Positions 13,518 through 32,739 are shown, counted from the stretch's first letter. The stretch: DNA of 64,000 bases from a virus (IMGVR_UViG_3300045988_130116), one strand, 5' to 3'. A program made the numbers and translations. The notes: generated by a model not told the origin, from the letters alone.

Positions 13518-13994
13518 TTATAATAAATATCGAAAACTAGGCATATCATCGCTAGAAGTCCACATACAAGGTGCACGAAGACCTCTATAAAAATCCTTAC
13601 ATATAGAAGTAAGTCTTTCAGATACCCCTTCTCCAGTCATAAAATCTTTATTTATATCTTCATAACTTACCCTTTTTAAAACAGTGCAATCATTTTCTAA
13701 CCACAATCTTATAGAAGCTATTACATCTTTATACCTTATTACTCTTTTATCATTCTTTTGATTTTGTAATATTTCTAAGTTCTCTTCTATTTCTTCTTTT
13801 ATTTTCTCTATTGGTTTTTCAGTTATAATATATTTTGAATTATCTATACTAGCATAAACAGGATAATCACAACCTGTATATTCTTTGTATATCTTTAAAA
13901 ACTCCTTCGATATATTATACCAATAAGCCTTATAAGGAGACCCATCGCATTCATAACAATTTTCTAATTTCCTCTTTATATTAACTATACGCAA
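13518..13994 (-). CDS. KEY-G-D-P family paralog (unknown function)
   Basis: 158 aa; LKIYKEYTGCDYP ... NDKRVIRY; closest to 14863..15342. Confidence 0.6.
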   Translation of the reverse strand: MRIVNIKRKLENCYECDGSPYKAYWYNISKEFLKIYKEYTGCDYPVYASIDNSKYIITEKPIEKIKEEIEENLEILQNQKNDKRVIRYKDVIASIRLWLENDCTVLKRVSYEDINKDFMTGEGVSERLTSICKDFYRGLRAPCMWTSSDDMPSFRYLL

Positions 13995-13996
13995 CT

Positions 13997-14332
13997 TTAT
14001 TCACCCTCCCTTATAACATCAAATATATAATGATTACAGGATATATCTCCTATAAAATTTCTTAATATACATTTGTGTTCTTTAACTCTCTCATCTTTAG
14101 AATATAATGTTAACTCATTTAAACTTTTAGTTAATCTATTCATTTCTTCAATAAAATCACGCCTTCCTACAACTGTTCTATTTATTATTTTTATTTGAGG
14201 GAAGTCTTCTCCTATATATTCTTTATAAATTTCTTTAAAGGAACTCTCTTCCACAGAAGAACTTCTATCCCATACTTGGCATCTCCAATTAATTCTATTA
14301 TCAGTATCTATTTTATCTATATAGCATATCAT
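13997..14332 (-). CDS. KEY-G-D-P family paralog (unknown function)
   Basis: Track ORF 13997..14380. ATG 14332 preferred: GGAAGGA SD, and it avoids overlap with 14334..14669. Contains FKEIYKEYIGEDFP ... SKDERVKEH. Confidence 0.55.
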   Translation of the reverse strand: MICYIDKIDTDNRINWRCQVWDRSSSVEESSFKEIYKEYIGEDFPQIKIINRTVVGRRDFIEEMNRLTKSLNELTLYSKDERVKEHKCILRNFIGDISCNHYIFDVIREGE

Positions 14333-14333
14333 A

Positions 14334-14669
14334 TTATTCGTCCTTCCATAACATATAAACAATCTTATTTGCAAGTCCATTTTGGATTATATCTATCTCA
14401 TAAGACACCTGATCAACTCTTCTGTCATGAATTTGTTTCTTTAAAGAACCCATTTGTTCTCCAATAACCCCATTTAAAATTATTAAAACTTCTTCTAATT
14501 CCAAATACTCTTCTCTCATTTTAAATGAAGGGTAATCTCTTCCAAAGTATTCTTTATATAATTCAACTATTTTATCACTTTGTGTTCTTGATATATTATC
14601 CCTTATAGCCTCTAAGATAATTTCCCCTTCAATCTCTTTATATTTAATTCCGTATAATTTTTCAACCAC
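14334..14669 (-). CDS. KEY-G-D-P family paralog (unknown function)
   Basis: 111 aa; VELYKEYFGRDYP; cassette promoter 14693..14721. Confidence 0.6.
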   Translation of the reverse strand: MVEKLYGIKYKEIEGEIILEAIRDNISRTQSDKIVELYKEYFGRDYPSFKMREEYLELEEVLIILNGVIGEQMGSLKKQIHDRRVDQVSYEIDIIQNGLANKIVYMLWKDE

Positions 14670-14692
14670 ATTATCAACTCCTTTATATTTAT

Positions 14693-14721
14693 ATTATATC
14701 ATATTTTAATATTGTTGTCAA
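14693..14721 (-). promoter_or_regulatory. cassette promoter TTGACA-17-TATAAT
   Basis: Drives 14334..14669 through thyX. Confidence 0.75.
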
Positions 14722-14847
14722 CTATTTTTTACGTTTAATTATGTAAGTTTGTGGATTAACTTTATTATATTCTCTAATGACTTCTGTCTCTCTTTCATCT
14801 AAGAAACAATATATTGTAGCTAATATTACTATTGAAATAAAATACAC
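14722..14847 (-). CDS. small membrane protein (41 aa)
   Basis: Own translation from GTG: VYFISIVILATIYCFLDERETEVIREYNKVNPQTYIIKRKK; GGAGGTGG SD. Confidence 0.35.
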   Translation of the reverse strand: MYFISIVILATIYCFLDERETEVIREYNKVNPQTYIIKRKK

Positions 14848-14862
14848 TGTACCACCTCCTTC

Positions 14863-15342
14863 CTAACAACAATCATTAAACATCGTCTCATACTCTGTTG
14901 TAATAAATTCATACAAACTATTATTTAAATCTTGAAAAGACATAAATCTAGCTTTAAGTATCTCAATTTTCGTTGTTTTACCACTCATGAAAGTTTTATC
15001 AATTTCATTAAATGAAACCTTATTTAAAATAATATAACCACTTTCTAATGCTAAAAGTATATGCCCTATACAATCTCCCAACATTAAAACTCTTTTATCA
15101 TTGGTATATTGTCTTAATACATTTAAATTTTCTTTTATTTCTTTTTCTACTTCTTTTATGGATTTTTCAGTTATAATTTGTTCTCCCATTTCAACCTTTG
15201 CAAACTTAGGATAATCACAACCAGTATAGTCCTTATATACTTTTAGAAAAATATCCTTTTTACTATCCCAATAAACTTTATCTATTGACCCTCTACACAT
15301 ATAAGAATCATTTAATTTTTTATATACTCCTAATATATACAC
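14863..15342 (-). CDS. KEY-G-D-P family paralog (unknown function)
   Basis: 159 aa, GTG start; LKVYKDYTGCDYP ... NDKRVLML; promoter 15366..15394. Confidence 0.6.
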   Translation of the reverse strand: MYILGVYKKLNDSYMCRGSIDKVYWDSKKDIFLKVYKDYTGCDYPKFAKVEMGEQIITEKSIKEVEKEIKENLNVLRQYTNDKRVLMLGDCIGHILLALESGYIILNKVSFNEIDKTFMSGKTTKIEILKARFMSFQDLNNSLYEFITTEYETMFNDCC

Positions 15343-15365
15343 CTCATCATCACCTCCTTTCTTAT

Positions 15366-15394
15366 ATTATATCATAAATTAATAATATTATCAA
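15366..15394 (-). promoter_or_regulatory. cassette promoter TTGATA-17-TATAAT
   Basis: -35 variant TTGATA; drives 14863..15342. Confidence 0.65.
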
Positions 15395-15591
15395 CTGTTT
15401 TCTGATTTTATTTCTTTAACTTTTGCTTTTGCATAACCGTCCCTTACAGTTTTTATCCCATTAAACTCATACTTAGAGCAAGAGTAATAAAATATATCGA
15501 ATATCTCTCTATTTTTTCCTCTTCTTTTTTTACATATATTGTGTCTTCCTGTTTTTAAATAAGAACAAGTCATACAAATTTTTTCTTCCAT
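15391..15591 (-). CDS. small Cys-rich basic protein
   Basis: 66-aa ORF; CMTCSYLK...ICKKRRGK...YYSCSKY. Confidence 0.5.
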   Translation of the reverse strand: MEEKICMTCSYLKTGRHNICKKRRGKNREIFDIFYYSCSKYEFNGIKTVRDGYAKAKVKEIKSENS

Positions 15592-15592
15592 A

Positions 15593-15946
15593 TTATACCA
15601 ACAACCTTTCTAAATTTTTTTCTTCTACTTTTAGATTAAGCATTTTAGCAACACCTAAAATACCTGTTGTAGTCCATCTTAAACTTATATACCCTCCTCC
15701 AAAGTTGTCTATACCCCCTACAAGTTTTACAAAGTCTCTGTCCATATTTAAATTAGGATACCATTGGTTATTAACTCTGCTTAAAACTTTATATTTTCTT
15801 GCCATTAAAATTTCAAAATCAGTACCAGAAGAAAATCCAAATAGATTTCCCACCTGTCTTGAAGTAAATAATTTATTACTATTTTTAAATTTTTGTAACC
15901 AGTCTAAATTATGTTGTATTTCAATATCAAATTTCTTTTTTATCAT
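15593..15946 (-). CDS. hypothetical protein
   Basis: 117-aa ORF packed between neighbours. Confidence 0.55.
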   Translation of the reverse strand: MIKKKFDIEIQHNLDWLQKFKNSNKLFTSRQVGNLFGFSSGTDFEILMARKYKVLSRVNNQWYPNLNMDRDFVKLVGGIDNFGGGYISLRWTTTGILGVAKMLNLKVEEKNLERLLV

Positions 15947-15956
15947 ATTTTACCTC

Positions 15957-16631
15957 CTAAGCACGTCTTTTCATTTTTTCTAAAGCCCTTCTCATTATTC
16001 TACTAACCTGCATTTGACTTACCCCGATTTGTGATGCTACTTGTTGTTGGGAACGATTATTATAAAAAATTTCCTCTATAACATATCTTTCTCTTTCGCT
16101 TATAACACTAAGTAAATATTCTATATATATATTTGTATCAAAATCCTCTTCATAAGGGGGTATTAAAACATCTGCATATGTACTTCCTTCTTCGCCTTTA
16201 TCTTCAATTCTACAAGGTTTATCAAGTGAAGCAACTCCAAAAGAAATATCCCTGATCTCTTTTACCTCATCAACGCTTAAACCTAATTCCTTGGCTATTT
16301 CTTCTATCGTCATATAGGGAAGCATAGATTCTATTTTATATTTGTTTTGAGTTATCTTTCTCCCATAAAAAATTCCCCTTTTTTTACCTCTAAATTCTCT
16401 TCGTATGCCGCCCAATATATAAGGAACGGCATAAGATGAAAATTCATAACCTTTGCTTTTATCATAAGTATCAACACATTTGATTAAGTTCATAAGCCCT
16501 ATTTGTTTTACATCATCATAAGTATAATCATATGTATTAAATAGTCCCAATCTTTTATTTATTACATAGTCTACTAATTTCATATTTTTAATTATAAAAT
16601 CATCTTTTTCTTTTTTATTTTTAAAATTCAT
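15957..16631 (-). CDS. sigma-70 family RNA polymerase sigma factor (1 of 3 in window)
   Basis: Region 2-like MNLIKCVDTYDKSKGYEFSSYAVPYILGGIRREFR; region 4 HTH SQQQVASQIGVSQMQVSRIMRRALEKMK. ATG 16631 preferred (GGAGTGAGG SD); track start is 16640. Confidence 0.85.
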   Translation of the reverse strand: MNFKNKKEKDDFIIKNMKLVDYVINKRLGLFNTYDYTYDDVKQIGLMNLIKCVDTYDKSKGYEFSSYAVPYILGGIRREFRGKKRGIFYGRKITQNKYKIESMLPYMTIEEIAKELGLSVDEVKEIRDISFGVASLDKPCRIEDKGEEGSTYADVLIPPYEEDFDTNIYIEYLLSVISERERYVIEEIFYNNRSQQQVASQIGVSQMQVSRIMRRALEKMKRRA

Positions 16632-16665
16632 ATACCTCACTCCCCATAAATCTATAATCTTATTT

Positions 16666-17187
16666 TTACAATCTTATTCGTTTTAAATCTTTATCAAATT
16701 TAAAGCCTATAATCTTACTTGTGGTTGCTAAATAATAAAGACTGCTAAAATTGACTCTCGTATTGCTACCTTCGGCTTTAAATAATTCATTCATTTCATC
16801 TATTACAACGTCTACACTCACAGAATTATCTTTATCTGCCAATCCTAAATGTCTTTGATATAATATTATCGTAAACATAATTTGTCTTAAAGATTCATTA
16901 AATTTTTCTTCTTCCTCAAATTCTTTAGTTGGGGTTTTATCTGACACATAATAATAACCTTCCTTACCTACGACTTTAAGCACTTGAGGTATAGTCATAC
17001 CATTAAACCAACCATACTTCAAAGTATTACTATATATGTCTTCATATCCTATATCACCTTTTCTAAGTTCTTCAAAATCATTTCCTTTGACCATAAGCAT
17101 CCACTCATGTGGGACTTTACAATCAAACTCTATAAAGAAATCATCAGTTAAAAATAAATTATCCCTTTTAAATGTACATTTTTTCAT
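16666..17187 (-). CDS. hypothetical protein
   Basis: 173-aa ORF; AGGAGG SD. Confidence 0.6.
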   Translation of the reverse strand: MKKCTFKRDNLFLTDDFFIEFDCKVPHEWMLMVKGNDFEELRKGDIGYEDIYSNTLKYGWFNGMTIPQVLKVVGKEGYYYVSDKTPTKEFEEEEKFNESLRQIMFTIILYQRHLGLADKDNSVSVDVVIDEMNELFKAEGSNTRVNFSSLYYLATTSKIIGFKFDKDLKRIRL

Positions 17188-17204
17188 AAATAAAACCTCC
17201 TTAA

Positions 17205-17618
17205 TTATTTTTTCATTTTACTAATTATTGCAGTTAGTTCATTAAATAAATCTTCTTTAAAAAATAATATACTTCCGTCAGAACCGTCATTGATATTGCA
17301 AAGAACACAAGGAAAACTAATTCTGTTTTCGGCTTTTTCTTTTACCTCTTTTACATTAGAAACTTCAAAGTAATCCAAATAAGCATATAAAAACATGTCT
17401 AATTGCTCTTTGTCATAAAATTTATAAGATTCAATTACATCATCTTTAAAAAATCTTGTATCAACCTTTAGACTATTAACATTATTCTCTAAGATGTAAT
17501 TCATAAAATCATAACTGTTATATAAATAAGCAGATTCTTTTGTTTCAAATTCATGTCCGTCTTGAGTAACATAAGTTACCTTTTTAATCTCTTTTGTTTT
17601 TATATTATAATCTCTCAT
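17205..17618 (-). CDS. hypothetical protein
   Basis: 137-aa ORF; GGGGTGG SD. Confidence 0.6.
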   Translation of the reverse strand: MRDYNIKTKEIKKVTYVTQDGHEFETKESAYLYNSYDFMNYILENNVNSLKVDTRFFKDDVIESYKFYDKEQLDMFLYAYLDYFEVSNVKEVKEKAENRISFPCVLCNINDGSDGSILFFKEDLFNELTAIISKMKK

Positions 17619-17619
17619 T

Positions 17620-17772
17620 TTACCACCCCGACTTATGTATTAATGTTAATAATGTTACAATTAAAAGACAGAATGTATACCCATTCATAAAATCTATTGT
17701 CAAAACACCATTTCTACAACCAATAAGACTTATTATAGTTATTATTATTAACAAAACTATATATCCAATCAT
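17620..17772 (-). CDS. small hydrophobic membrane protein (50 aa)
   Basis: Own translation MIGYIVLLIIITIISLIGCRNGVLTIDFMNGYTFCLLIVTLLTLIHKSGW; AAGGAGAAA SD; cassette promoter 17799..17827. Confidence 0.5.
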   Translation of the reverse strand: MIGYIVLLIIITIISLIGCRNGVLTIDFMNGYTFCLLIVTLLTLIHKSGW

Positions 17773-17798
17773 TTTCGATTTCTCCTTTCTATATTTAT

Positions 17799-17827
17799 AT
17801 TATATCATATTATCAAATTGTTGTCAA
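17799..17827 (-). promoter_or_regulatory. cassette promoter TTGACA-17-TATAAT
   Basis: Drives 17620..17772. Confidence 0.75.
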
Positions 17828-18301
17828 GTGTTTTTCATCTTTTAAAATTTTATCTCTTATTTTCATAAGCACTATACCAAGTCTATTTTCTCCAATCCAC
17901 ATACCATATTTTCGACTATAGGTCATTCCCCAAACTCTATCTGCATGGCAGTTCCCTTCCACTAACTCCCTTCCATTTGTACTTAATAATTTTGTTTTAA
18001 GAGTTTCATCTTGTATAAATTTTTGATAACATATATCAAACATAACATTGTCTTTTACCTCTTCCCAATCCTCTCTTAAAAGTAATTGTCTGCCTAGTCT
18101 TTTTGATTGAGCAGGTCTTTCCATTTCAAATTCTTTAACTCTACTCCAACATTTTTCTGCATGGTAAGGGGCTTCTGAATTTGTAAATTTATATCCTTTG
18201 TATTCAAAAGTTTTCCCTTCATAGAAATTACTTAAAAAGAGATACTCTCCTCTAAATTCCATAATAGCTGTAGCTTCGTTTTTAATTACATATTGTTTCA
18301 T
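17813..18301 (-). CDS. NADAR (YbiA/DUF1768) family protein
   Basis: 162 aa; FRGEYLFLSNFY..F.NSEAPYHAEK ... DW..VK..VM....QKF.QD..LK.KLL.T....LVEGN..D..WG; own cassette promoter. Confidence 0.8.
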   Translation of the reverse strand: MKQYVIKNEATAIMEFRGEYLFLSNFYEGKTFEYKGYKFTNSEAPYHAEKCWSRVKEFEMERPAQSKRLGRQLLLREDWEEVKDNVMFDICYQKFIQDETLKTKLLSTNGRELVEGNCHADRVWGMTYSRKYGMWIGENRLGIVLMKIRDKILKDEKHLTTI

Positions 18302-18325
18302 ATTATTACTCCTTTCTATATTTAT

Positions 18326-18354
18326 ATTATATCACATTATCAAAGTGTTGTCAA
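18326..18354 (-). promoter_or_regulatory. cassette promoter TTGACA-17-TATAAT
   Basis: Drives NADAR gene 17813..18301; overlaps the last codons of the sigma gene (..NTLIM*). Confidence 0.75.
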
Positions 18355-19045
18355 GTGTTTTTTTCATTTTTTTTAAAATTTTTCCAATATGTCTACTTAT
18401 ATATACTTGATTACAACCATACATTTCTCCTATTTCTTTTTGAGTTTTATTCTCATAAAAATATAAAGTTATTAAATCTCTTTCGTTCTTAGGCAATATA
18501 TTTAATAATTGTTTTACAATCATTTTGTTATGTAATTTTTCTATAGAATCTTCTGAATCTGCTATCATATCTCCAACAGTTGTATCTTCTTCATCACTAT
18601 TAACGGATTGATTTAAAGATGTTAACCCACCTATTAAAGAATATACCCTATTTAAATCCTGTAGTCTTACATCTAATATTTTACAGATTTCTTCGTTAGT
18701 TATATAGACATTTTTTCTTTTTAATCTATTAATTTCTCTTAATAAATTCATGTCAACTTCACTTAATCTATTCATTCTATTCCTAACAATAACTTTTTTA
18801 GAAACTTTATCTAAAGAAGTTATACCGTAAGTATAAAAACTCAAACCTCTTTCAGTATCAAATCTCTTAATACATCTTAATAAAGCTAAATTAAGTTCTT
18901 GTTCCATATCCTCTAAGTCAAAAGCTTGTATTCCTGTTTTCCTTACTCTTCTCATTTCATGTTCTACAATTACTTTATATTCATTAAATAATTCATTTAA
19001 AGCCTCATTATCGCCATGTTGTGCTTTTAAAAATAATTCCTTCAT
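18332..19045 (-). CDS. sigma-70 family RNA polymerase sigma factor (2 of 3)
   Basis: 237 aa; LALLRCIKRFDTERGLSFYTYGITSL; region 4 KTQKEIGEMYGCNQVYISRHIGKILKKMKK. Confidence 0.8.
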   Translation of the reverse strand: MKELFLKAQHGDNEALNELFNEYKVIVEHEMRRVRKTGIQAFDLEDMEQELNLALLRCIKRFDTERGLSFYTYGITSLDKVSKKVIVRNRMNRLSEVDMNLLREINRLKRKNVYITNEEICKILDVRLQDLNRVYSLIGGLTSLNQSVNSDEEDTTVGDMIADSEDSIEKLHNKMIVKQLLNILPKNERDLITLYFYENKTQKEIGEMYGCNQVYISRHIGKILKKMKKTLDNTLIM

Positions 19046-19073
19046 TCTACTTCTCCCTTCATCTTATATATTA

Positions 19074-19102
19074 ATTATATCATATTTTAATATTGTTGTC
19101 AA
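19074..19102 (-). promoter_or_regulatory. cassette promoter TTGACA-17-TATAAT
   Basis: Drives sigma gene 18332..19045. Confidence 0.75.
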
Positions 19103-19563: not shown

Positions 19564-19583
19564 TTATTTACCTCCTATCTTAA

Positions 19584-19612
19584 TAAAAAAAGGAAGAATA
19601 ATTATTCTTCCT
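19584..19612 (-). terminator. intrinsic terminator after 19616..19885
   Basis: Minus strand AAGGAAGAATAATTATTCTTCCTT followed by TTTTTTTT. Confidence 0.7.
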
Positions 19613-19615
19613 TGT

Positions 19616-19885: not shown

Positions 19886-19958
19886 CTTCTCACTCCAAAT
19901 GATGGCTTATATAGGAGTCTAAAGCCATCTAATTATAGTTATATTAACTCCTATATAT

Positions 19959-19987
19959 ATTATACTGAATTTTAAAAATATTGTCAA
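19959..19987 (-). promoter_or_regulatory. cassette promoter TTGACA-17-TATAAT
   Basis: Drives 19616..19885; leader carries alternative hairpins 19901..19954. Confidence 0.75.
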
Positions 19988-19990
19988 TAA

Positions 19991-20461
19991 TTATTTAAAA
20001 AAATTTATTATTTCATTATATATTTTTTCAACCATACTATCTACATTTACACTAGAGGTTTTTCTTTTCTTTATAACATCTTTTATATCACATGATGTTA
20101 CCCCTAATATGGAAGCATTTCCAACTTCTATAGTAAAGAAACTTGTCGCAGAAGCAGGCTCTATTCCTCTATTAGGTCTTAATTTTATATTGCCTAAATT
20201 TTTCTTGCTTCCTATACCTGAATCTATAGCTACTATTTTTTTATCTTCGTTTTCAAACATAACTTTTAAACATTCTTCTATATAATTTTTCCCATCAATA
20301 GGCTTTTCTACTGTCCCATAAACAGTAAATCCTGCTTCTTTTAATTTACTCCCTAATCTTGGGGCAAAGCTATCTAAAGGATATTTAGGGCAACCTATAC
20401 ATAAAAATACTAAGTCTTCTTTATTACATAACACCTTTTTTATATTCCCTATTATCTTCAT
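19991..20461 (-). CDS. YyaC-like (DUF1256) putative spore-protease-family protein
   Basis: LVFLCIGCPKYPLDSFAPRLGSKL...VYGTVEKPIDGKN...IVAIDSGIGS resembles B. subtilis YyaC (vCIGTDRSTGDSLGPLVG). ATG 20461 with AGAGGTGA SD preferred over track start 20536. Confidence 0.65.
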   Translation of the reverse strand: MKIIGNIKKVLCNKEDLVFLCIGCPKYPLDSFAPRLGSKLKEAGFTVYGTVEKPIDGKNYIEECLKVMFENEDKKIVAIDSGIGSKKNLGNIKLRPNRGIEPASATSFFTIEVGNASILGVTSCDIKDVIKKRKTSSVNVDSMVEKIYNEIINFFK

Positions 20462-20472
20462 ATTATCACCTC

Positions 20473-20799
20473 TTAAATATATTGATATATTAACATATGG
20501 AAACCTTTTCCAGTTCTTATAAAATTTTGACACCAAGTTTCCATGTTAATATTTAATTCATTTTCTTCTAACTGTGCTATTTTCATTATGGCATCAGAGG
20601 GAATTTCTTCATAGAATATTCTCTCAAAGCCTTCCTTAGCTTTTTCATATTCTTTATTAAGTATTTGTTCCTTGACTTCGTTAAAAAATCTCTCTGTTTC
20701 TTCTACAGCCTTTTGTCTTGCCTTTATATTCTCTGTATATTTTAATAATTTTTCTAAACCCTCACCTTCAACAAACTTTAACTTTTTAGTGACCCTCAT
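20473..20799 (-). CDS. hypothetical protein
   Basis: 108-aa ORF; GGAGGGG SD. Confidence 0.55.
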   Translation of the reverse strand: MRVTKKLKFVEGEGLEKLLKYTENIKARQKAVEETERFFNEVKEQILNKEYEKAKEGFERIFYEEIPSDAIMKIAQLEENELNINMETWCQNFIRTGKGFHMLIYQYI

Positions 20800-20815
20800 A
20801 TTCCCCTCCTGTTAA

Positions 20816-21736
20816 TTAATTATATTTATTCTTATATAATAATAGTGTATCCATAGAAAATGCACTAATATTATGTTTTCGCTTAAAATCTCTAATAGTA
20901 GAGTTATTCCATATTGTATTATTAGCTATTGTTTCTTCGTGCATCTTGTATATAACTCCCCCTATATATAACTTTTGTGGCTTTAATAATACGTCATATT
21001 CTGCTAATGAATCATTTAAATTAGCAATTCTAGTTCTTAACCCATTAAATGTCATTCTATTTAAACCCATACCATTATTTCTTTGAGGTTTACTTCTTAC
21101 AATATAAGGACTGTTTACATTTAATTTATAAGTTTCATTTGAAGTTCCTTCTATATCCCCTAATTTATAGTAAGAAATTTCTTCGATAGCAGATTGACAA
21201 TATTCTCTTAATATTTCATCCATTTCTATTATCTTATTTCCAACAATTATTTCATTCTTAGAGAAATCAACATCAGTTACTTTGATATTTGTTATATCAT
21301 CAAACCTTTTATCTTTTAACCCATACCAAATTCCATAAACTAGGAATTTATCTTGTGAATTAATAAATTGTTCGCATATAGCAATTATTTCATCTTTAGT
21401 ATAAATACCTTCATTATCTTTTATTATTTTATTAGGTGGTACATTTGAAAACTTTGTAGGTATATTAAGTACATCATTAAATATTTTAGTGAAGTCATTT
21501 ACTCTTATAGTTATACTTTGATAAGAATCTATTCTACCACAATGAATTATCAAAAAGTCGTTTATCTCTTCTAATGTTGCCCTAGTTATATTTTCCCCCT
21601 CGTTTACTACAAGTTTACCTTGTTCTGATAAGTAACTTATTAATCTTCTGTAATTAGCCCTAACACCTATTTTTGATGCTTCGTTCCAATTCTCTGTTGC
21701 CTTCTCTATTGTCTCATAATTTTTTAAGTTTAACAT
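20816..21736 (-). CDS. hypothetical protein (weak resemblance to tyrosine-recombinase N-terminal/core-binding region; catalytic residues not recognised)
   Basis: 306-aa ORF; cassette promoter 21790..21818; SD separated from ATG by hairpin 21745..21765. Confidence 0.55.
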   Translation of the reverse strand: MLNLKNYETIEKATENWNEASKIGVRANYRRLISYLSEQGKLVVNEGENITRATLEEINDFLIIHCGRIDSYQSITIRVNDFTKIFNDVLNIPTKFSNVPPNKIIKDNEGIYTKDEIIAICEQFINSQDKFLVYGIWYGLKDKRFDDITNIKVTDVDFSKNEIIVGNKIIEMDEILREYCQSAIEEISYYKLGDIEGTSNETYKLNVNSPYIVRSKPQRNNGMGLNRMTFNGLRTRIANLNDSLAEYDVLLKPQKLYIGGVIYKMHEETIANNTIWNNSTIRDFKRKHNISAFSMDTLLLYKNKYN

Positions 21737-25428: not shown

Positions 25429-25477
25429 AGTACTATTTAGAAATATCTTTAATTTTTTTACATTTAAGAAAGACTTC

Positions 25478-25747: not shown

Positions 25748-25784
25748 AAAAATAATATAAAATTAGCACCCATAAGAGTGCTAA
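25748..25784 (-). terminator. intrinsic terminator after primase gene
   Basis: TTAGCAC-TCTTATGG-GTGCTAA then TTTTATATTATTTTT; the stem includes the stop codon. Confidence 0.6.
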
Positions 25785-27307
25785 TAAAATAATTGATAAG
25801 TATTGCATAAACCTTTGTTGCCTTTTATTTTGTCAACTATTATAAGTTTAGCGTCAATTAAGTTTGATAAAATTTTAGGTATATTATTTGTTTTTATTCC
25901 TGTTAGATAAGATATATCTTCAAGAGTAACGGTTGGATTATTTGCCATTAAATATCTTAAAGCGATAGCAACCTTCAAGTCATTATCTTTTATTAACTTT
26001 TGCATTTTAAACACGAATAAATTTGTATTTAAATGCACTATTTCTTTATTGTACTTTTCAAAATCAAAATTATAAGTATAAAGTTCTGTCGGTTTTTTAG
26101 AACCGTCTATTTGTTGTTTTGTACTATATACTATATTTTTTTCTTTTAGATTTTTTAAAACTTTAGATATAGTCGGTTTGCTTATTTTTAAGTATTCAGA
26201 TATATCTTCTTTAGTAAAAAATTTTGTATTACAAACCTTTAATAACGCCATCACAGTTAATTCTGTTCCAGTTAATATTTCTAACATAAGTTTTTTCTCC
26301 TTACCTTTTACTGTTTGATAATTTATTATATGTTTTTTTGTCAATCCCATTACTTTATTATCTAAAGATATATCTGGTAACACAAATATATCATCAGAAG
26401 TAATATTTTTATATTTACATTTTAAGCTACATAATTTTTGTCCTGTCTTTATACAACAAGGTTTTATAAAAGAAGGATTCTCATATATACTTTTAACAAC
26501 TTTTTTAATTTCATTCTTAGACAATCCTTCTTCGCAGTTACTATTAAACTCGTAAGCATACTGTAAAGCCTTGTGTTCGCTTAGGTTAGCGTATTTACAA
26601 ACACTAGATATAAACATCAATGATTCATTTCTAAACCCCTTAGAAGCTCCATGACGGACTATTTGATTAAAACAGAATAAGTCTTCTACATTATCAACCG
26701 TCATATCAGTATTATTCTTTTTAAGTTCTATTACCCTATGATTTTTTAAGGTTTTTAAATCATATCCTCTTATCGGATTTCCATTTGTAACAATGGAAGC
26801 ATATTTATTTACTTTAAAGTTTTTAGTAAAAGGAACTCTTATTATCTGAGTACTGCTACAAGCCTTTATATCGGCTTCAAATAGGCTTGTAATATGCCTA
26901 TTGACTTCTACTATATCCTTAATAGGGTAAGAACCTTCTAGCTTAAAATATAAGTGCCAACCTCTACCACTATTGACAACCATATGTGTGAATAATCCTA
27001 TCCTTTTACACATATAATATATTTCTGATATAGGTAAATCTTCTTCATCTATATCTACTACTATAACATTCCTATTTAATAAAAGCTCTGTTTTATAAGC
27101 CTCTGTAACAGTTGTTGCTAGTCCTATATAGCAACTATTGTGTTTATACTTTTCTATTAAAGCTAGTCCTTCCTCATATGTATTAAAAAATACTTGTTTA
27201 TTAAAATTGGTATTAGGATTATTAATCCAAAGATATCCTTTTTCAATATTATTATTTTCTAATGTTGGAAGAACAAATTTTAAATAAGTTAATATTTTCT
27301 TTTCCAT
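25781..27307 (-). CDS. AEP-type primase / replication initiator with C-terminal winged-helix domains
   Basis: 508 aa; VIVVDIDEED (DxD), NSGRGWHLYF, IIRVPFTKN; C-terminal MarR-like FTKEDISEYLKISKPTISKVLKNLKEKNIV. Confidence 0.7.
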   Translation of the reverse strand: MEKKILTYLKFVLPTLENNNIEKGYLWINNPNTNFNKQVFFNTYEEGLALIEKYKHNSCYIGLATTVTEAYKTELLLNRNVIVVDIDEEDLPISEIYYMCKRIGLFTHMVVNSGRGWHLYFKLEGSYPIKDIVEVNRHITSLFEADIKACSSTQIIRVPFTKNFKVNKYASIVTNGNPIRGYDLKTLKNHRVIELKKNNTDMTVDNVEDLFCFNQIVRHGASKGFRNESLMFISSVCKYANLSEHKALQYAYEFNSNCEEGLSKNEIKKVVKSIYENPSFIKPCCIKTGQKLCSLKCKYKNITSDDIFVLPDISLDNKVMGLTKKHIINYQTVKGKEKKLMLEILTGTELTVMALLKVCNTKFFTKEDISEYLKISKPTISKVLKNLKEKNIVYSTKQQIDGSKKPTELYTYNFDFEKYNKEIVHLNTNLFVFKMQKLIKDNDLKVAIALRYLMANNPTVTLEDISYLTGIKTNNIPKILSNLIDAKLIIVDKIKGNKGLCNTYQLFY

Positions 27308-27339
27308 TGCCTCTTCTCCCAGTTCGATATTCTAATTCT

Positions 27340-27368
27340 ATTATACCAAAAATTACTAATGTTGTCAA
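27340..27368 (-). promoter_or_regulatory. cassette promoter TTGACA-17-TATAAT
   Basis: Drives primase gene 25781..27307. Confidence 0.75.
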
Positions 27369-27373
27369 GTGGT

Positions 27374-27757
27374 TTATTCTTTTTCATTTAAATAAATCTT
27401 TTTAAATAATTGTAACATAGGCAATGAATCAACTAAAGCCCCTTCAGTTATTCGCTTATCTTTTTTATATGCTATCAAAATTTTAAAATGTTTTAATAAT
27501 AAATCTCTCAACTCTTTGTGGGTATATGGAACTTTTATAATATATTCATATCTCCCCATATCGTTTTTAGGATTAATTTCTACAATTTTAGCAGTAGGAT
27601 ATTCTTCTCCTATGTATTCTTTATATATTTTTTCAAACGCTAAAAAACCTTCTACCTTCTCTACTCTATAATTCCTAATACTGTTGGGGCTTTTATATAA
27701 ATATTCTCCATCTTCTGCTTTACCTAAAAAAATCCAGTTAGGATAGAATGTTATCAT
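27374..27757 (-). CDS. KEY-G-D-P family paralog (unknown function)
   Basis: 127 aa; FEKIYKEYIGEEYP ... YKKDKRITEG; own cassette promoter. Confidence 0.6.
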   Translation of the reverse strand: MITFYPNWIFLGKAEDGEYLYKSPNSIRNYRVEKVEGFLAFEKIYKEYIGEEYPTAKIVEINPKNDMGRYEYIIKVPYTHKELRDLLLKHFKILIAYKKDKRITEGALVDSLPMLQLFKKIYLNEKE

Positions 27758-27791
27758 ATTACCAACTCCTTTTCTTATTATATATATATAT

Positions 27792-27820
27792 ATTATATCA
27801 TATTATCATAATGTTGTCAA
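27792..27820 (-). promoter_or_regulatory. cassette promoter TTGACA-17-TATAAT
   Basis: Drives 27374..27757. Confidence 0.75.
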
Positions 27821-27828
27821 GTATTAAA

Positions 27829-27857
27829 ATAAAAAAAATCATGCATTAGGCATGATT
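27829..27857 (-). terminator. intrinsic terminator after amidoligase pair
   Basis: AATCATGC-CTAAT-GCATGATT then TTTTTTTATTTT. Confidence 0.7.
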
Positions 27858-28907
27858 AAGTAGATCAGGAATAACTAAATCTTTAAAGGTTGTATTTTCA
27901 TTTATATCTGTTTCTAATAAGGCTAAGATAAATTCTATATACTTATATATCCTATTAGCATCTAACGTCCCCTTGAACCCTCTAAATTCTATTGTATCTT
28001 TATTGGTTAGGTTTATCATTCTTCTTCTTCCGAATGATTCTGAACTAAAAATTATTTCATTGGCTATTCGTGTATCAATTTTCTTATCTTTATAAGTGTA
28101 AAATTCTGCATATGGAGTTTCCCTTCCACAGAAATCTATAACATCTTTTTTATTGTTCTCTAAGAACATTATTATTTGTGGAAGTTTCTTTACAACTTCA
28201 TCAGTTTTAGTAACATGAATGTGTAACCCACATCTATCTGATGTATACATTATCTTTTTTAATTCTGATGTTATTTGTTCTATAATTCCATTATTTTTTA
28301 TAAATTCATAGCTTAAAGGATTAGTTATTGTTTCAAACCCATCCTCTAAAGAACCGTCTCTTTCAAAGCAACATAATGTTCTTGTACTTTCAGAAAACAT
28401 TTTCTCTATACTTGGTCTTTCATCTTGGAAGGAGACTTCTTCATCTTCATTTAAAGATGAATCTAAAGAGTATTCAGATTCTATTTCTAATCCAAAGAAT
28501 ATCCCATTCAAAGGATTACCATAGAGTTTTTTAGGAAAATCATGTTGGTTATGATATCCTCCGATATTTGTGTTTTCAACATCTTTTTCCTTCATACAAT
28601 CTCTGCATAGTTCACTACAAATATCATCTTCGTAAGCTAATTCTCCACATTCACGACATATCATAAATTGGTATGATACACAATCACAAATAAGTCCTCT
28701 AGTGTTTTTTATTTTTGCCATATGGGTAAGTTTCCCTTCTTCGTACAGTTCATATCTTTTATGATATATGCACCAATATACTTTATTATCTTTTATAAGT
28801 TGTTCTAAATAATCTATACACACAGGAGAAGATGAATCCTCTCCTGCTATATAAACCTCTGTAAATACTTCTTTCCCACACTTACATTTTTTTACCATAT
28901 TAATCAC
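27846..28907 (-). CDS. amidoligase (Amidoligase_2 / GS-like COOH-NH2 ligase) with N-terminal Cys-cluster zinc ribbons
   Basis: 353 aa; GIFFGLEIESE..DGSLEDGFETITNP..YEF...RCGLHIHVTK...INLTNKDTIEFRGFKGTL; paralog of 28912..29964 and 40626..41852. Confidence 0.75.
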   Translation of the reverse strand: MINMVKKCKCGKEVFTEVYIAGEDSSSPVCIDYLEQLIKDNKVYWCIYHKRYELYEEGKLTHMAKIKNTRGLICDCVSYQFMICRECGELAYEDDICSELCRDCMKEKDVENTNIGGYHNQHDFPKKLYGNPLNGIFFGLEIESEYSLDSSLNEDEEVSFQDERPSIEKMFSESTRTLCCFERDGSLEDGFETITNPLSYEFIKNNGIIEQITSELKKIMYTSDRCGLHIHVTKTDEVVKKLPQIIMFLENNKKDVIDFCGRETPYAEFYTYKDKKIDTRIANEIIFSSESFGRRRMINLTNKDTIEFRGFKGTLDANRIYKYIEFILALLETDINENTTFKDLVIPDLLNHA

Positions 28908-28911
28908 CCCA

Positions 28912-29964
28912 CTAAAATACTAAGTTTTCTTTAAATAAATCAAACCCACTAACTTTTTCTAAGTCTTTAAATGTAGGTCTCTCTGTTATACTGAATAGAT
29001 GTTCTATATTTTCAACTAAAGCTAGGATAAATTCAATATAACCATAAACTCTTTTAGCATCTAATGTTCCTGCAAAACATCTAAATTCTATTGTGTGTTC
29101 ATTAGTAAAGTTTATACACATATGTCTTCTTCCTTGAGGTCTTAAACATATTCTCTCGGCTTCATAGGCAGTTAATAAGTTTTCTTCTGTATAGAAGTCA
29201 CACCATTCGGTAAATGAATCATAAGTTCTTCTTGAAAAATCAACTATATCATTTTTATTGCTTTCTAGGAAAGATAAGATTAACGGCATAGCTTTTACAA
29301 CTTCATCAGTTTTAGTAACATGAATGTGTAACCCACATCTATCTGATGCATACATTTCATTACCTCTAAGAGTCTCTAATATATCTTCTACTACGAAGTT
29401 ATTTCTCATAAATTCGTAACTCATAGGATAAGTTATTGTTTCAAAACCGTCATCTAAAGAACCGTCTTCTTCAAAATAAACTTTGTCTGAACCTACTTTA
29501 TCTTGTACTGATAAGGCTATAAGATTTCTATCTAAATCACAATCATAATCTCTTTCAGATTCTATTTCTAATCCAAAGAATATACCATTTGAAGGAGTTC
29601 CATGAAAATGTAATTCTTGACCATGGTGATAGTGATAATATTTAATTACTTTTCTTTCTTCGTAACAATGACTACAAAGAACATCATCTCCCATAACATA
29701 TTCGTCTCCTTTTCTCATAGGTCTACCACATTCGTCACAAGTTATATAGTTTTCATCGAATGCTTCTTGACACATTACTCTACAATTATCGTAAACATCA
29801 GTTATTTCAACTCTATTTTCTATTGGTTCGTAATCTCTATGTTCTTCACAATAGAAGTATCTTTCATCTAAACAATCTACACAGAACCATTCTCCGTTTA
29901 ATTTAACCATTTCATATCTATTTTCTTCTTTCCCACAAACTGAACACATCATTTTATTTTCCAT
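28912..29964 (-). CDS. amidoligase (Amidoligase_2-like) with N-terminal Cys-cluster zinc ribbons
   Basis: 350 aa; GIFFGLEIESE..DGSLDDGFETITYP...RCGLHIHVTK...INFTNEHTIEFRCFAGTL; cassette promoter 29996..30024. Confidence 0.75.
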   Translation of the reverse strand: MENKMMCSVCGKEENRYEMVKLNGEWFCVDCLDERYFYCEEHRDYEPIENRVEITDVYDNCRVMCQEAFDENYITCDECGRPMRKGDEYVMGDDVLCSHCYEERKVIKYYHYHHGQELHFHGTPSNGIFFGLEIESERDYDCDLDRNLIALSVQDKVGSDKVYFEEDGSLDDGFETITYPMSYEFMRNNFVVEDILETLRGNEMYASDRCGLHIHVTKTDEVVKAMPLILSFLESNKNDIVDFSRRTYDSFTEWCDFYTEENLLTAYEAERICLRPQGRRHMCINFTNEHTIEFRCFAGTLDAKRVYGYIEFILALVENIEHLFSITERPTFKDLEKVSGFDLFKENLVF

Positions 29965-29995
29965 TCTATCCTCTCCTTTTCTTTATTATACTTAT

Positions 29996-30024
29996 ATTAT
30001 ATCACATTATCAAAGTGTTGTCAA
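29996..30024 (-). promoter_or_regulatory. cassette promoter TTGACA-17-TATAAT
   Basis: Drives amidoligase pair 28912..29964 and 27846..28907. Confidence 0.75.
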
Positions 30025-30049
30025 GTGTTTTTCTTGTTTTTCTTCTTTC

Positions 30050-30421
30050 CTACAAACTTAACATATCTATATCAACAGGTAAAAGTATTTTATCCATATC
30101 AAAATCATATTTAAAGAACCAACTTACATCACCTCTTGTTTTTGTTATCCTTTTATCGTTTTTATATTTTTTTATTTCTGTTGCTCTTTCTTTGAATTTA
30201 TCAGAATATGCTTGTAAATCATTTATTGTCATATTTTCAATTACATATGTATTATAGATTATTTGCTTCATTTTTATTAATTTTAAATCTTCTCCTATGT
30301 ATTCTTTAAATAATTCTTCAAAGGTATTCATTGCTTCACCTCGTATCCCGTAATTATAATCCCACTCTTTTATGAAAACATTGTTCCCTTGTTGTGTTGC
30401 ATTGTATAAAACGATTATCAT
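30050..30421 (-). CDS. KEY-G-D-P family paralog (unknown function)
   Basis: 123 aa; FEELFKEYIGEDLK ... YKNDKRITKT; own cassette promoter. Confidence 0.6.
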   Translation of the reverse strand: MIIVLYNATQQGNNVFIKEWDYNYGIRGEAMNTFEELFKEYIGEDLKLIKMKQIIYNTYVIENMTINDLQAYSDKFKERATEIKKYKNDKRITKTRGDVSWFFKYDFDMDKILLPVDIDMLSL

Positions 30422-30442
30422 TCAATCACCTCCTTTTATATA

Positions 30443-30471
30443 TATTATATCATATTATCAAAGCGTTGTCA
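30443..30471 (-). promoter_or_regulatory. cassette promoter TTGACA-17-TATAAT
   Basis: Drives 30050..30421. Confidence 0.75.
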
Positions 30472-30485
30472 AGTGTTTTTAGATT

Positions 30486-30860
30486 TTATTCTTTTATTAT
30501 TACAGGTATTATTATTGGTTTTTCTCGTGCAAAATAATCTATGAAATAACCAACATTCCCCATAAATCTTTTATCTTTTTTATATTTTTTTATATTTTGT
30601 AAGTCTTCACAGAATGCTTTAGAAAGCGTTTCTATATCTTTTATTTCTTTATTTTTTATTGTATAAAAATCAGGATTTTCTTCTATTATTTCCATTTCTA
30701 AATACTCTAAATTCTTATCTCCATATTCTTTATAAAGTTTTTCTAATCTTTCTTCGTCTTTCCAATTTAAAATATGTCCGTACGCCCATTTGCTAATTAT
30801 TATTCCATCAGTAGGTAATCCTATTTTTTGAATCGTGTAATCAAAAATTTTAATTATCAT
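30486..30860 (-). CDS. KEY-G-D-P family paralog (unknown function)
   Basis: 124 aa; LEKLYKEYGDKNLE ... YKKDKRFMG; own cassette promoter. Confidence 0.6.
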   Translation of the reverse strand: MIIKIFDYTIQKIGLPTDGIIISKWAYGHILNWKDEERLEKLYKEYGDKNLEYLEMEIIEENPDFYTIKNKEIKDIETLSKAFCEDLQNIKKYKKDKRFMGNVGYFIDYFAREKPIIIPVIIKE

Positions 30861-30893
30861 ATCATCAACTCCTTTATTTCTTATTATACCTAT

Positions 30894-30922
30894 ATTGTAT
30901 CATATTATTATACTGTTGTCAA
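30894..30922 (-). promoter_or_regulatory. cassette promoter TTGACA-17-TACAAT
   Basis: Drives 30486..30860. Confidence 0.7.
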
Positions 30923-30941
30923 GTGTTTTTCTAAAAAAAAA

Positions 30942-31400
30942 TTATTTTTTTTCACATTCACATTTAAGATTATTCTTTAGAACATTATTAAATCTTGTTA
31001 TTTTCCTTTGTTCTCCACAAATATGCTCCAATATACAAGGCTTCATATACCCATTAAAAGACACTATCTTCCATTCATCATGGTATTTATCGGATAGTTT
31101 TTTACGAGCTTTCTCAAGCCTTATATCGTGTTTATATTGTTCTTCTTTGAGTGTTATTTTTTCTTTTAATTTAACAACTCTATCTTTTTCATCCTTGCAT
31201 ATATGGTTAACAAAGGGCAAAGTAGATATATATTTAATATTTCTCTTAAATACATACTCTTTACATTTAGGACATTTAAACCAAGCATAATAATCTTGAT
31301 TATACTTTACTTCACTAGGTTTTAAATCATTTAATTCATTATCCCACCAAGTAGTCATTGAGGGATAAACTCCCTCAAAACTATTTGAATATTCTATCAT
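30942..31400 (-). CDS. zinc-ribbon protein (single DUF4379-like unit)
   Basis: WWDNELNDLKPSEVKYNQDYYAWFKCPKCKEY. ATG 31400 after AGGTGA preferred, because the cassette -10 at 31419..31424 leaves a very short leader. Track start is 31409. Confidence 0.55.
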   Translation of the reverse strand: MIEYSNSFEGVYPSMTTWWDNELNDLKPSEVKYNQDYYAWFKCPKCKEYVFKRNIKYISTLPFVNHICKDEKDRVVKLKEKITLKEEQYKHDIRLEKARKKLSDKYHDEWKIVSFNGYMKPCILEHICGEQRKITRFNNVLKNNLKCECEKK

Positions 31401-31418
31401 TATTATCACCTCACAATT

Positions 31419-31447
31419 ATTATATCATATAATTACATTGTTGTCAA
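31419..31447 (-). promoter_or_regulatory. cassette promoter TTGACA-17-TATAAT
   Basis: Drives 30942..31400 with an unusually short leader. Confidence 0.7.
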
Positions 31448-31448
31448 G

Positions 31449-32387
31449 CTAAATTACATCAAATAAAGGATTAGAATTTGATAATTCTTTAAGTTTATCC
31501 TTATCACTATTGAAGTAATGATTAAGAGTAGTTGTACTGCTAGAGTGTCCCAGTTCTTTTCTAACAACGTCTAAGTTCTCACTTGAACCATTTATCATTA
31601 CTGATGAATGACAGGCTCTTAGGGCGTGAGTATTAATTTTATCAAGCCCTGCATTAGTGGATACCTTGTTAATAATTCTAAGAATATCTCTTGAAGATAT
31701 TTTTCTACCTGTTTTAGATAAAAATAATATATCTCCATCTTTTGAAGTAGGTCTATAATTATCTATATAGTAATTTAAGTCTTCTAGTATCTTATTATTA
31801 AGATAAACTATTCTAGTCTTAGAAAACTTAACTCCACCTTCTTCTGCCCATCTAGTCAATATTGTTTCTCCTGTCTCTAGGTTAACATCTTGTATTCTTA
31901 GATATTCTAACTCTGCACATCTTAATCCATTAGATAATAATATAGCTACCATTAAATGATTTCTAAAAGATAATTTACTATCATTTTTATGACTATTTGT
32001 GTACTTTAAAAGAGTGATGGCTTCACCCTGATCTACTACTCTTTTATCTTTGACATTTCCGTTACTTCTAGGTATCGTCCTAGCAGTATTAGTAGTGCAA
32101 TACAATTCTCCTATCATATAAGTATACAATCTACTTAATACGGCTATTCTCTTGTTTATAGTAGCCGATTTAAGTCCTTGTTTTTCTAGTTTAGATAACC
32201 ATTTTATGGAGTATTCACTACTTCTTATTTTGGCTATATTCTCAAATGTAGCCTTTTCTGTATCTCCTTCAAACATATAATCTATCATTTCTTCTAGTAT
32301 TGCTTTATAAGAAGATACAGTTAATTTCTGATTAGCACCTTGAATTTCTGTAAGATATTCTAAGAATAAATTTAAATCTTTATTCAT
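31449..32387 (-). CDS. tyrosine recombinase / integrase (XerC/D-like)
   Basis: LRCAELEYLRIQDV..., THALRACHSSV, LGHSSSTTTLNHYF (R..H..R..Y catalytic pattern). ATG 32387 after AGGAGGGG preferred; track start is 32408. Confidence 0.9.
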   Translation of the reverse strand: MNKDLNLFLEYLTEIQGANQKLTVSSYKAILEEMIDYMFEGDTEKATFENIAKIRSSEYSIKWLSKLEKQGLKSATINKRIAVLSRLYTYMIGELYCTTNTARTIPRSNGNVKDKRVVDQGEAITLLKYTNSHKNDSKLSFRNHLMVAILLSNGLRCAELEYLRIQDVNLETGETILTRWAEEGGVKFSKTRIVYLNNKILEDLNYYIDNYRPTSKDGDILFLSKTGRKISSRDILRIINKVSTNAGLDKINTHALRACHSSVMINGSSENLDVVRKELGHSSSTTTLNHYFNSDKDKLKELSNSNPLFDVI

Positions 32388-32388
32388 A

Positions 32389-32739
32389 TTAACCCCTCCT
32401 AATATCATTAATAAACATTACTGTTTTTCCGTCTCTTAAACATCTATTAAAGAGACTTCTATATCTTTTTAATTTTTTGTCATTCTTGTAACGATTTAAC
32501 TCTAGTAAAGTTTTATTAACACTTTTTACATGGTTGTCAAACTCTTCTTCTGATTCTTCTATATAAAGTCTATCCTTTTCACTTCTAAGATTCAACATCT
32601 TAATCTCTCCAATATATTCTTTGCATAATTGTTCTAATGCCTTTTCTGATTCTAAACTTGTAAGTCTATTTACTCCCCATGCAGATAAATATAATTCATG
32701 TTTATCTGATATAAACACATTGTCTGTAATAAAAATCAT
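32389..32739 (-). CDS. KEY-G-D-P family paralog (unknown function)
   Basis: 116 aa; LEQLCKEYIGEIKM ... YKNDKKLKRY. Confidence 0.55.
   Translation of the reverse strand: MIFITDNVFISDKHELYLSAWGVNRLTSLESEKALEQLCKEYIGEIKMLNLRSEKDRLYIEESEEEFDNHVKSVNKTLLELNRYKNDKKLKRYRSLFNRCLRDGKTVMFINDIRRG

Follow-up and report, generated by a model that had tools for sequence, protein, structure and literature searches.

Eight paralogous genes share one viral window

The 64,000-nucleotide stretch of viral DNA IMGVR_UViG_3300045988_130116 (the window, always meant at its full length) carries between positions 13,518 and 32,739 eight small genes, numbered m1 to m8 here, which a preliminary description made from the sequence alone had grouped into a single paralogous family with two shared motifs. 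The eight open reading frames (ORFs) it listed are all present, all on the minus strand, and all small (111-159 aa). Four form a tandem array. At one end of it, m1 (13518..13994) encodes a long form of 158 aa read from a TTG start, in which the core domain is followed by a hypervariable C-terminal tail after a conserved EDI[ND]K.FM.GE motif; at the other end, m4 (14863..15342) encodes the second long form, of 159 aa. Between them lie m2 (13997..14332) and m3 (14334..14669, with a GTG start), each encoding 111 aa. m3 heads an m3-m2-m1 operon in which the ATG of m2 lies 1 nt past the m3 stop codon, and the m2 orthologue in the related locus L001 is also called at 111 aa. The remaining four genes occupy three intergenic positions that we call slots: m5 (27374..27757, 127 aa) is in slot C, between the second of two amidoligase genes and a Rep/primase gene, m6 (30050..30421, 123 aa) and m7 (30486..30860, 124 aa) share slot B, and m8 (32389..32739, 116 aa) is in slot A, directly upstream of a tyrosine recombinase gene.

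Several lines of evidence establish that these genes are true paralogues. BLASTP ties the members together transitively, with E values of 5.8e-36 for m1-m4, 1.7e-12 for m6-m7 and 2.5e-09 for m2-m5. When each member in turn was left out of a profile hidden Markov model (HMM) of the family, the omitted protein was recovered in all eight cases with 30.0-62.6 bits and E = 1e-8 to 9e-19 (m1, 8.6e-19; m2, 3.5e-12; m3, 1.1e-08; m4, 3.2e-14; m5, 1.6e-11; m6, 6e-13; m7, 6.8e-09; m8, 5e-09), while 200 composition-preserving shuffles per member reached top scores of only 5.4-10.0 bits on the family HMM. The shared motifs therefore reflect homology, and compositional coincidence is ruled out. Aligning every window ORF of at least 60 aa to the family profile with hhalign gave probabilities of 98.5-100% for exactly these eight, the next best being 27%, and revealed no ninth member within the window. 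That next candidate (8092-8649) was dropped because both motifs are missing from it, and the small ORFs at 33.1-35.1 kb gave no hhalign signal as remote members. The proteins are hydrophilic, with a negative grand average of hydropathy (GRAVY) in 8/8 (-0.3 to -0.7), and their isoelectric points (pI) range from 4.9 to 8.9: m5 (8.9) and m8 (8.5) are basic, and the other six lie between 4.9 and 6.4. As a group they are neither DNA mimics nor uniformly basic.

Predicted fold and conserved motifs

An AlphaFold2 model of m6, built on a 35-sequence alignment, has a mean predicted local distance difference test score (pLDDT) of 95.3 and a predicted template modelling score (pTM) of 0.87. An independent AlphaFold run for m4 gave a mean pLDDT of 87.1, with the core above 90; the C-terminal tail that the long forms m1 and m4 carry in addition is modelled at low confidence (pLDDT ~60). 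The two proteins are only 16% identical, yet their models share the same predicted order of secondary-structure elements. It begins with four short strands at the N terminus, continues through helix 1, a beta-hairpin and the long helix 2, and ends with two short helices and one last strand. The models bear out the N-terminal beta-like segment anticipated in the preliminary description, which had however placed the KEY motif too far into the protein, at 45-60 residues; its actual position is 36-48 residues in.

All sequences pooled, the family forms 38 clusters at 60% identity. We assessed conservation over 36 full-length representatives, taking positions conserved in at least 70% and using m6 numbering. 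The conserved positions are Y38, K39, E40, Y41, G43 and P47 in the first motif and Y86, D89, K90 and R91 in the second; Y41 and D89 are invariant, R91 is kept in 35/36, and some hydrophobic positions are moderately conserved too. In the models, motif 1 (YKEY-G-(E)-x-x-P) closes helix 1 and motif 2 (Y-x-x-D-K-R) lies in the loop before helix 3. Within the large orthologue groups, such as those of m6 and m1 with more than 60 alleles each, the variation is patchy: it falls mainly on the strands at the N terminus, on the first part of helix 1 and on the residues that follow motif 2, and in the long forms on the C-terminal tail. The motif regions are constant, as is the central hairpin. Judged from these alignments, the two polar motifs are the only constant elements across the 36 subtypes, set on a variable scaffold.

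Searches for known relatives

The family had been put forward as unrecognised, and no sequence or structure library that we tried gave a significant match. Searches of Pfam-A, PHROGs v4, NCBIfam and PADLOC with the eight window proteins and 35 family members produced no family that matched more than one member and no match that reached a curated cut-off, and a sequence profile search of the PDB with the family returned nothing. For structural comparison we took a Foldseek E value of at most 0.001 or a template modelling (TM) score of at least 0.5 as a match. Neither the m6 model, searched against PDB and BFVD, nor the m4 model, for which PDB was used, gave an E value of 0.001 or below, and all TM scores were 0.34 or less. 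The weak matches were enriched for ferredoxin-like alpha+beta domains (BLUF, RRM, NIPSNAP and Cas2; best E 0.45, non-significant). Both models do contain the beta-alpha-beta-beta-alpha-(alpha-alpha)-beta order of such domains, from which they differ in an extra N-terminal beta-meander and two inserted helices as well as in the lack of a significant match. The element string is compatible with a ferredoxin-like fold as a reading of secondary structure, not as a shown relationship. Overall, the models suggest small, soluble alpha/beta proteins with a fold that has no detectable relative.

Three candidate assignments suggested by individual features were rejected. A GIY-YIG nuclease, brought to mind by the string 'KEYIGE', would have GIY and YIG on adjacent beta-strands, conserved Arg, Glu and Asn residues and a PF01541 match; here there is no match to PF01541 or any other Pfam family and no GIY partner motif, and the Y-x-G sits at the C-terminal end of predicted helix 1 rather than on a strand. 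A HUH Rep or relaxase, prompted by the helical Y-x-x-Y and the beta-alpha-beta-beta-alpha-beta string, is defined by a His-hydrophobic-His metal-binding motif on a strand and a catalytic Tyr; the 36 subtypes have no conserved His column, and no Rep or TnpA appeared among the Foldseek matches. The obligatory two-gene operon of type II toxin-antitoxin systems was not seen: only m8 has a recurrent non-family partner, five members are monocistronic, with promoters of their own, and three lie in a member-only operon.

At the DNA and proteome level, m5 had no tblastn match in 50,697 phage records, E values up to 10 included, and megablast of the region recovered only a 72-nt HNH fragment from phages and nothing from plasmids. 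The six-frame translation of C. difficile phage phiCD211 gave a best E value of 0.087 against the profile HMM, and thus no member. An exhaustive HMMER profile search of 1.84 billion cluster representatives returned only 41 clusters, all of 65-180 aa, and each cluster whose context was checked sits in syntenic contigs of one phage lineage, to which the family appears to be restricted.

A promoter cassette repeated across the genome

The preliminary description had a diversified multi-copy family standing behind strong promoters, and sigma-A-type consensus sites are indeed found there. Of perfect TTGACA-N17-TATAAT sites the window contains 24, where 0.09 would be expected; every one is on the minus strand, in the stretch from 2.4 to 39 kb (2459-39439), and about 30 promoter copies are counted when one mismatch is allowed. 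What the copies have in common goes beyond the hexamers and extends over ~75 nt: they have an A-rich CAC upstream, a similar spacer, a -10 of the extended type, and a leader that reads ATAAGTATAATAAGAAA-GGAG-N-ATG. It is this cassette, made up of sigma-A consensus promoter, leader and ribosome binding site (RBS), that opens every transcription unit.

The claim that the members mostly have private promoters therefore holds in its literal part only. A consensus promoter lies directly upstream of 5/8 members, on the minus strand in each case: m3, as head of its operon (14693..14721, perfect consensus), m4 (15366..15394, TTGATA-17-TATAAT with an extended TG), m5 (27792..27820, perfect), m6 (30444..30472, perfect) and m7 (30894..30922, 11/12 consensus positions). 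The other three are transcribed within operons, m2 and m1 downstream of m3, and m8 after a 99-aa ORF whose promoter (33069..33097, minus strand) serves the 99-aa ORF, m8 and the recombinase. However, because their similarity runs so far beyond the hexamers, these promoters are copies of one genome-wide promoter-leader cassette and do not distinguish the family. Some copies have a terminator-like hairpin ahead of them, such as that at 27837-27857 just upstream of the m5 promoter and another before the slot A promoter; others have none.

A protein that may act on these repeats is encoded at 20816-21736 on the minus strand. It resembles tyrosine recombinases (phrog_5830 'integrase', 1.6e-16) and is 28% identical to proteins of the phiCD211 group. 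Its L001 orthologue, 99% identical, has a precomputed match to PF22823 (MrpR_C_cat), while a Pfam scan of the window protein itself gave no match, to PF22823 or otherwise. In phage SPbeta, the recombinase-fold repressor MrpR binds the repeated element SPBRE in promoter regions (PMC10516654). By analogy, the window protein is a candidate master repressor of the repeated promoters, and no more than a lead.

Members are exchanged at fixed slots

We compared 18 related loci (given L numbers here) centred on the tyrosine recombinase gene (31449..32387, minus strand), which is co-transcribed with the gene or genes of slot A. A family member lies directly upstream of the recombinase in 18/18 of them, in about 9 distinct configurations. 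The recombinase most likely starts at the ATG at 32387, 1 nt past the m8 stop codon, with its RBS within the end of m8; of the proposed translational coupling of m8 to the integrase gene, adjacency and co-transcription stand, but the two genes do not overlap.

The occupants of the slots vary between loci. In slot A, the window and L011 have the 99-aa ORF followed by m8. L009, L010 and others have a 113-aa member with ~33% identity to any window member, next to a recombinase that is 98-99% identical and a following gene that is 100% identical. Two members are found in L003, L002 and L023, and L012, L013 and L022 have a full member together with a 47-aa remnant of another, lying between it and the recombinase (9632-9775 in L012, 7900-8043 in L013), which shows in-place decay of a cassette. 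Slot B, from a zinc-finger gene to the first amidoligase gene, varies in relatives from m7 with m6 to m6 by itself; it is empty in L011, holds two other members elsewhere, and in L003 contains a 97-aa ORF, a 130-aa member and m6. m7 is missing in L011, L020 and L024. Slot C, enclosed by the second amidoligase gene and Rep, is occupied in relatives by m5 at 54-100% identity or by a member 34% identical to it, or is empty (L003, L024). The tandem array differs as well: between m4 and m3, L001 has an additional 120-aa member, and the window no more than a 46-aa ORF. Phages whose slots hold different members or none share 97-100% identity in the flanking genes. Every phage genome has an assortment of members of its own, placed in intergenic slots that are fixed.

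The boundaries of the exchanges point to how they arise. In the slot A DNA alignment, homology stops right past the shared promoter, RBS and ATG and restarts at the recombinase RBS, and the promoter at 33069..33097 forms the upstream boundary of the swap. Where members are absent, hybrid promoters mark the junctions: L011 has neither m7 nor m6, and there the m7 promoter's upstream flank is fused to the spacer and leader of the amidoligase promoter; in L003, which lacks m5, the upstream half of the m5 promoter is fused to the -10 and leader of the Rep promoter. The promoters thus also serve as recombination substrates, and cassette recombination brings in, removes and replaces units that each consist of a gene and a promoter. 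Non-family ORFs are now and then shuffled likewise. The 99-aa ORF upstream of m8 (32736..33035, minus strand), which has no family match, travels with a family member: a similar pair recurs in L003 (with the ORF at 11896-12189) at a different slot with ~30-33% identity, and ORF and member may form a two-gene module. The possibility that this ORF is itself a degenerate member was rejected at an hhalign probability of 0.1%.

Pairwise ratios of nonsynonymous to synonymous substitution rates (dN/dS), taken over whole genes, are 0.10-0.57 for family orthologues, and therefore indicate purifying selection, somewhat relaxed; neighbouring genes span 0.02-0.59, with enzymes lowest. In L010, m6 is 72% identical between flanks of 98-100%. 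The diversity of the family arises mainly via cassette replacement and allele exchange.

Possible functions of the family

The preliminary description regarded the family as fitting the pattern of host-takeover or anti-defence proteins, and several of our observations agree with this: the family is unrecognised and diversified, it stands behind strong promoters, its members are swapped at fixed slots, and an ArdC-like anti-restriction gene (35157-35975, minus strand, with ArdcN and Peptidase_M78 domains) lies ~2.4 kb upstream of m8 in the same putative early region. A SprT-like metalloprotease gene (36716-37321, minus strand) stands, like the ArdC-like gene, at the head of that region. We favour, at a probability of about 0.4, the reading that the members are accessory immediate-early effectors of host takeover or counter-defence. 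On this reading they would act as stoichiometric binding proteins, in which the constant motif pair would engage a shared partner or ligand, or hold the fold together, and the variable N-terminal strands and the region past motif 2 would give every subtype its own target, so that the phage could keep a repertoire matched to the strains it meets. The related suggestion of specificity subunits is neither supported nor contradicted by these observations, although a constant polar site on a variable scaffold would agree with it.

A number of points weigh against the effector reading and keep its probability where it is. Nothing ties the family to a target. Whole-gene dN/dS, considered as a possible sign of an arms race, is below 1 throughout and gives no signal of gene-wide positive selection, and the promoters are not specific to the family. 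Expression is likely to be early, a timing that derives from promoter sequence and analogy with SPbeta. One conserved charged site in one family points to a single shared activity or partner rather than to many unrelated inhibitors, and the constant presence of a member upstream of the recombinase could mean a link to recombination.

A more specific and more tentative version, which we regard as clearly less probable, is that a novel fold forms a swappable arsenal built on a single scaffold. Here ~40 subtypes would use the constant YKEY/DKR site for a common host machine or ligand and direct their variable surfaces at strain-specific defence or host factors, with ~8-10 of them per phage-plasmid reassorted by promoter-cassette recombination, as a Gram-positive counterpart of the PeSL shuffling of phage T4.

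Three further explanations appear unlikely, to about the same degree. The members could be accessory or architectural factors in DNA transactions, whether as cofactors that serve the recombinase in directionality or resolution, or as specificity subunits that bind DNA, each subtype at its own site. A member sits immediately upstream of the recombinase, co-transcribed with it, in every locus compared, the recombinase RBS falls within the end of m8, and m5 and m8 are basic. A specific partner would however be expected to co-vary, whereas the upstream member is exchanged for one ~30% identical while the recombinase stays at 98-99%; moreover, 6/8 members have a pI of 4.9-6.4, other members adjoin thyX, amidoligase or Rep genes, and phiCD211 has annotated integrases but no member genome-wide.

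The variable slots amid conserved genes also resemble prophage defence hotspots, and the pairing of the 99-aa ORF with a member recurs in L003 at ~30% identity in another slot, as two-gene modules do. The members could accordingly be genes that benefit the lysogen, as superinfection exclusion, defence, toxin-antitoxin or abortive-infection modules. This is hard to reconcile with the absence of a recurrent PADLOC match in 35 members, with most members having no partner gene and with proteins that are hydrophilic throughout (GRAVY negative in 8/8). The genes also share their cassette with replication and nucleotide-metabolism genes, and by analogy with MrpR and SPBRE of SPbeta (PMC10516654) would be silent in lysogeny.

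The third of these explanations, no easier to accept, starts from the motifs themselves. Y38, K39, E40, Y41, Y86, D89, K90 and R91, all polar or aromatic, are the only positions kept across the 36 subtypes, and weak, non-significant Foldseek matches recur to the nucleotide-binding N-terminal domain of Legionella lpg1496, so that the YKEY/DKR site might be a catalytic or small-molecule pocket and the proteins small enzymes or sponges for signalling nucleotides or similar ligands, not protein binders. Against this, the PDB structural matches all have E values of at least 0.45 and TM scores of at most 0.28, and in the models an Asp-Lys-Arg at a helix start and a Tyr and Gly at a helix end would make a purely structural role equally plausible.

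Finally, we consider it very improbable that the family is selfish and mobile, its members being free-standing homing endonucleases of a new class that spread into intergenic sites: they show presence/absence polymorphism and have their own promoters, and the HNH homing endonuclease gene of the same region also shifts position between relatives, but there is no nuclease motif or family match ('YIG' falls at a predicted helix end, with no conserved His), promoter-repeat recombination fully accounts for the mobility, and non-family ORFs are shuffled the same way.

The lineage concerned is common in human-gut metagenomes, the exact m6 protein occurring on 239 contigs, and is without a cultured representative. 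A single family, absent from all libraries tried and with confident models that match no known structure, accounts for eight of its early genes. The comparison also yields a defined experimental target, with fixed slots, ~38 natural variants, two invariant motifs and a visible mechanism of cassette exchange, and if the members do act as effectors of counter-defence or takeover, the family would offer a new source from which to draw inhibitors for Clostridial systems.

The phage lineage and neighbouring genes

The window has a G+C content of ~27% and genes on the minus strand to ~52 kb, then on the plus strand through the structural module. Its large terminase is 53% identical to those of C. 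difficile phages phiCD211 and phiCDIF1296T and ~35% identical to those of SPbeta-like Bacillus phages; the phiCD211 group has been described as comprising large 'plasmidial' siphoviruses (PMC5786514). No direct sequence match of the window to SPbeta was found by BLAST. Close relatives are human-gut metagenomic contigs of 141-155 kb, for which the sole organism label is the NCBI name of one copy, 'uncultured Clostridium sp.', and the m6 protein has no match in GTDB genomes. From these similarities, the phage appears to belong to a ~145 kb lineage of human-gut Clostridia related to phiCD211 and the SPbeta-like phages. The Rep/primase gene (25781-27307, minus strand) encodes a 508-aa protein with PriCT_1 and winged-helix domains that is 50% identical to Rep of small Paraclostridium (P. 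sordellii) and C. difficile plasmids, and the element is therefore probably a phage-plasmid with plasmid-type replication. One match of the Rep/primase protein to a contig of a metagenome-assembled genome binned as Melainabacteria was set aside, as we took it for a mis-binned phage contig.

A 2.7 kb stretch (43600-46300) has no ORF of at least 70 aa and shows a local change in GC skew. It includes AT-rich iterated repeats of 21-25 nt in ~7 copies (45286-45455) and a 40-nt repeat at 44624-44715, and may be an origin or partition site. Just past the strand switch into the structural module lie tRNA genes (54225-54681, plus strand), of which Rfam finds three and ARAGORN two (Leu-TAA and Thr-TGT).

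Several other genes accompany the family. The amidoligase genes that separate slots B and C are two tandem Amidoligase_2 paralogues with N-terminal zinc-ribbon regions (27846-29964, minus strand). Further upstream, again on the minus strand, 40626-41852 and 38026-39036 encode probably a third amidoligase, since the L003 homologue carries PF12224, and a protein with a faint class-II glutamine amidotransferase match; together, the amidoligases and the amidotransferase-like protein could make up a peptide-ligation or tagging system in the early region. Downstream of thyX lies an HNH homing-endonuclease gene (12162-12731, minus strand), and in L001 an HNH_3 gene (10621-11301) is found between m1 and thyX. 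The endonuclease appears to move independently, and 72 nt of the sequence are 86% identical to an HNH gene of Bacillus phage pW2. Two genes for phage sigma-70-family factors (15957-16640 and 18332-19045, minus strand) are close to the tandem array, and near them, as in phiCD211, is a DUF1256/YyaC-type spore-protease-like gene (19991-20536, minus strand).

Comparison with known systems

In its regulation, the region calls to mind the SPBRE element and the MrpR master repressor of SPbeta (Kohm et al. 2023, PMC10516654). Both concern a large temperate phage of Firmicutes with a conserved element that recurs at many promoters, and the window likewise encodes a recombinase-like protein (20816-21736). 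They differ in that there is no direct sequence match and the window protein has no PF22823 match, and the parallel bears on the regulation of the family, not on its function.

In the host-takeover modules of SPO1-like phages and among the terminal-repeat 'Tre' genes of Twort-like phages, short early genes follow one another in runs; a promoter of host type and an RBS, both very strong, precede every gene or every second gene, and the genes are mostly unrelated. The window also has runs of short genes behind strong host-type promoters, but no sequence similarity to those modules was detected. At anti-CRISPR (Acr) and other anti-defence loci, variable small genes occupy a fixed position beside a conserved gene, behind a strong early promoter, and differ between near-identical phages. 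The family slots show the same arrangement of variable genes, with an ArdC-like gene nearby. However, Acr loci hold unrelated proteins, whereas the occupants here are all homologous, and they have no match to a solved anti-defence structure.

The closest parallel in mechanism is provided by the hyperplastic-region ORFans and PeSL regulatory cassettes of T4-type phages (Arbiol et al. 2010, PMC2839356). There, small non-essential early genes lie behind a conserved strong cassette with a sigma-70-type promoter, and recombination between cassettes leads to insertion, deletion and replacement among close relatives (PMC2839356). A stem-loop terminator within the cassette and the formation of mini-circles also belong to the PeSL type. 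The window cassettes are similarly repeated many times, far above expectation, with spacer and leader conserved, and recombination between the cassettes of this lineage is seen in the hybrid promoters of L011 and L003 and in the limits of the slot A swap. There are also differences: the host here is Gram-positive and the phage temperate, of the phiCD211/SPbeta type; the cassette runs through the leader and RBS to the start codon, with a stem-loop at only some copies; and the slots examined are filled mostly by one protein family instead of unrelated ORFans. With promoter-cassette exchange in this lineage, the PeSL idea from T4 would come to cover temperate phages of Firmicutes as well. The shuffling of variable early ORFan genes by promoter cassettes is of an already known kind; what is new is its occurrence in a temperate Gram-positive phage-plasmid, a cassette that reaches through the leader to the start codon, slots occupied mainly by one orphan family with confident models that have no match, and a member of that family always at the head of the recombinase operon.

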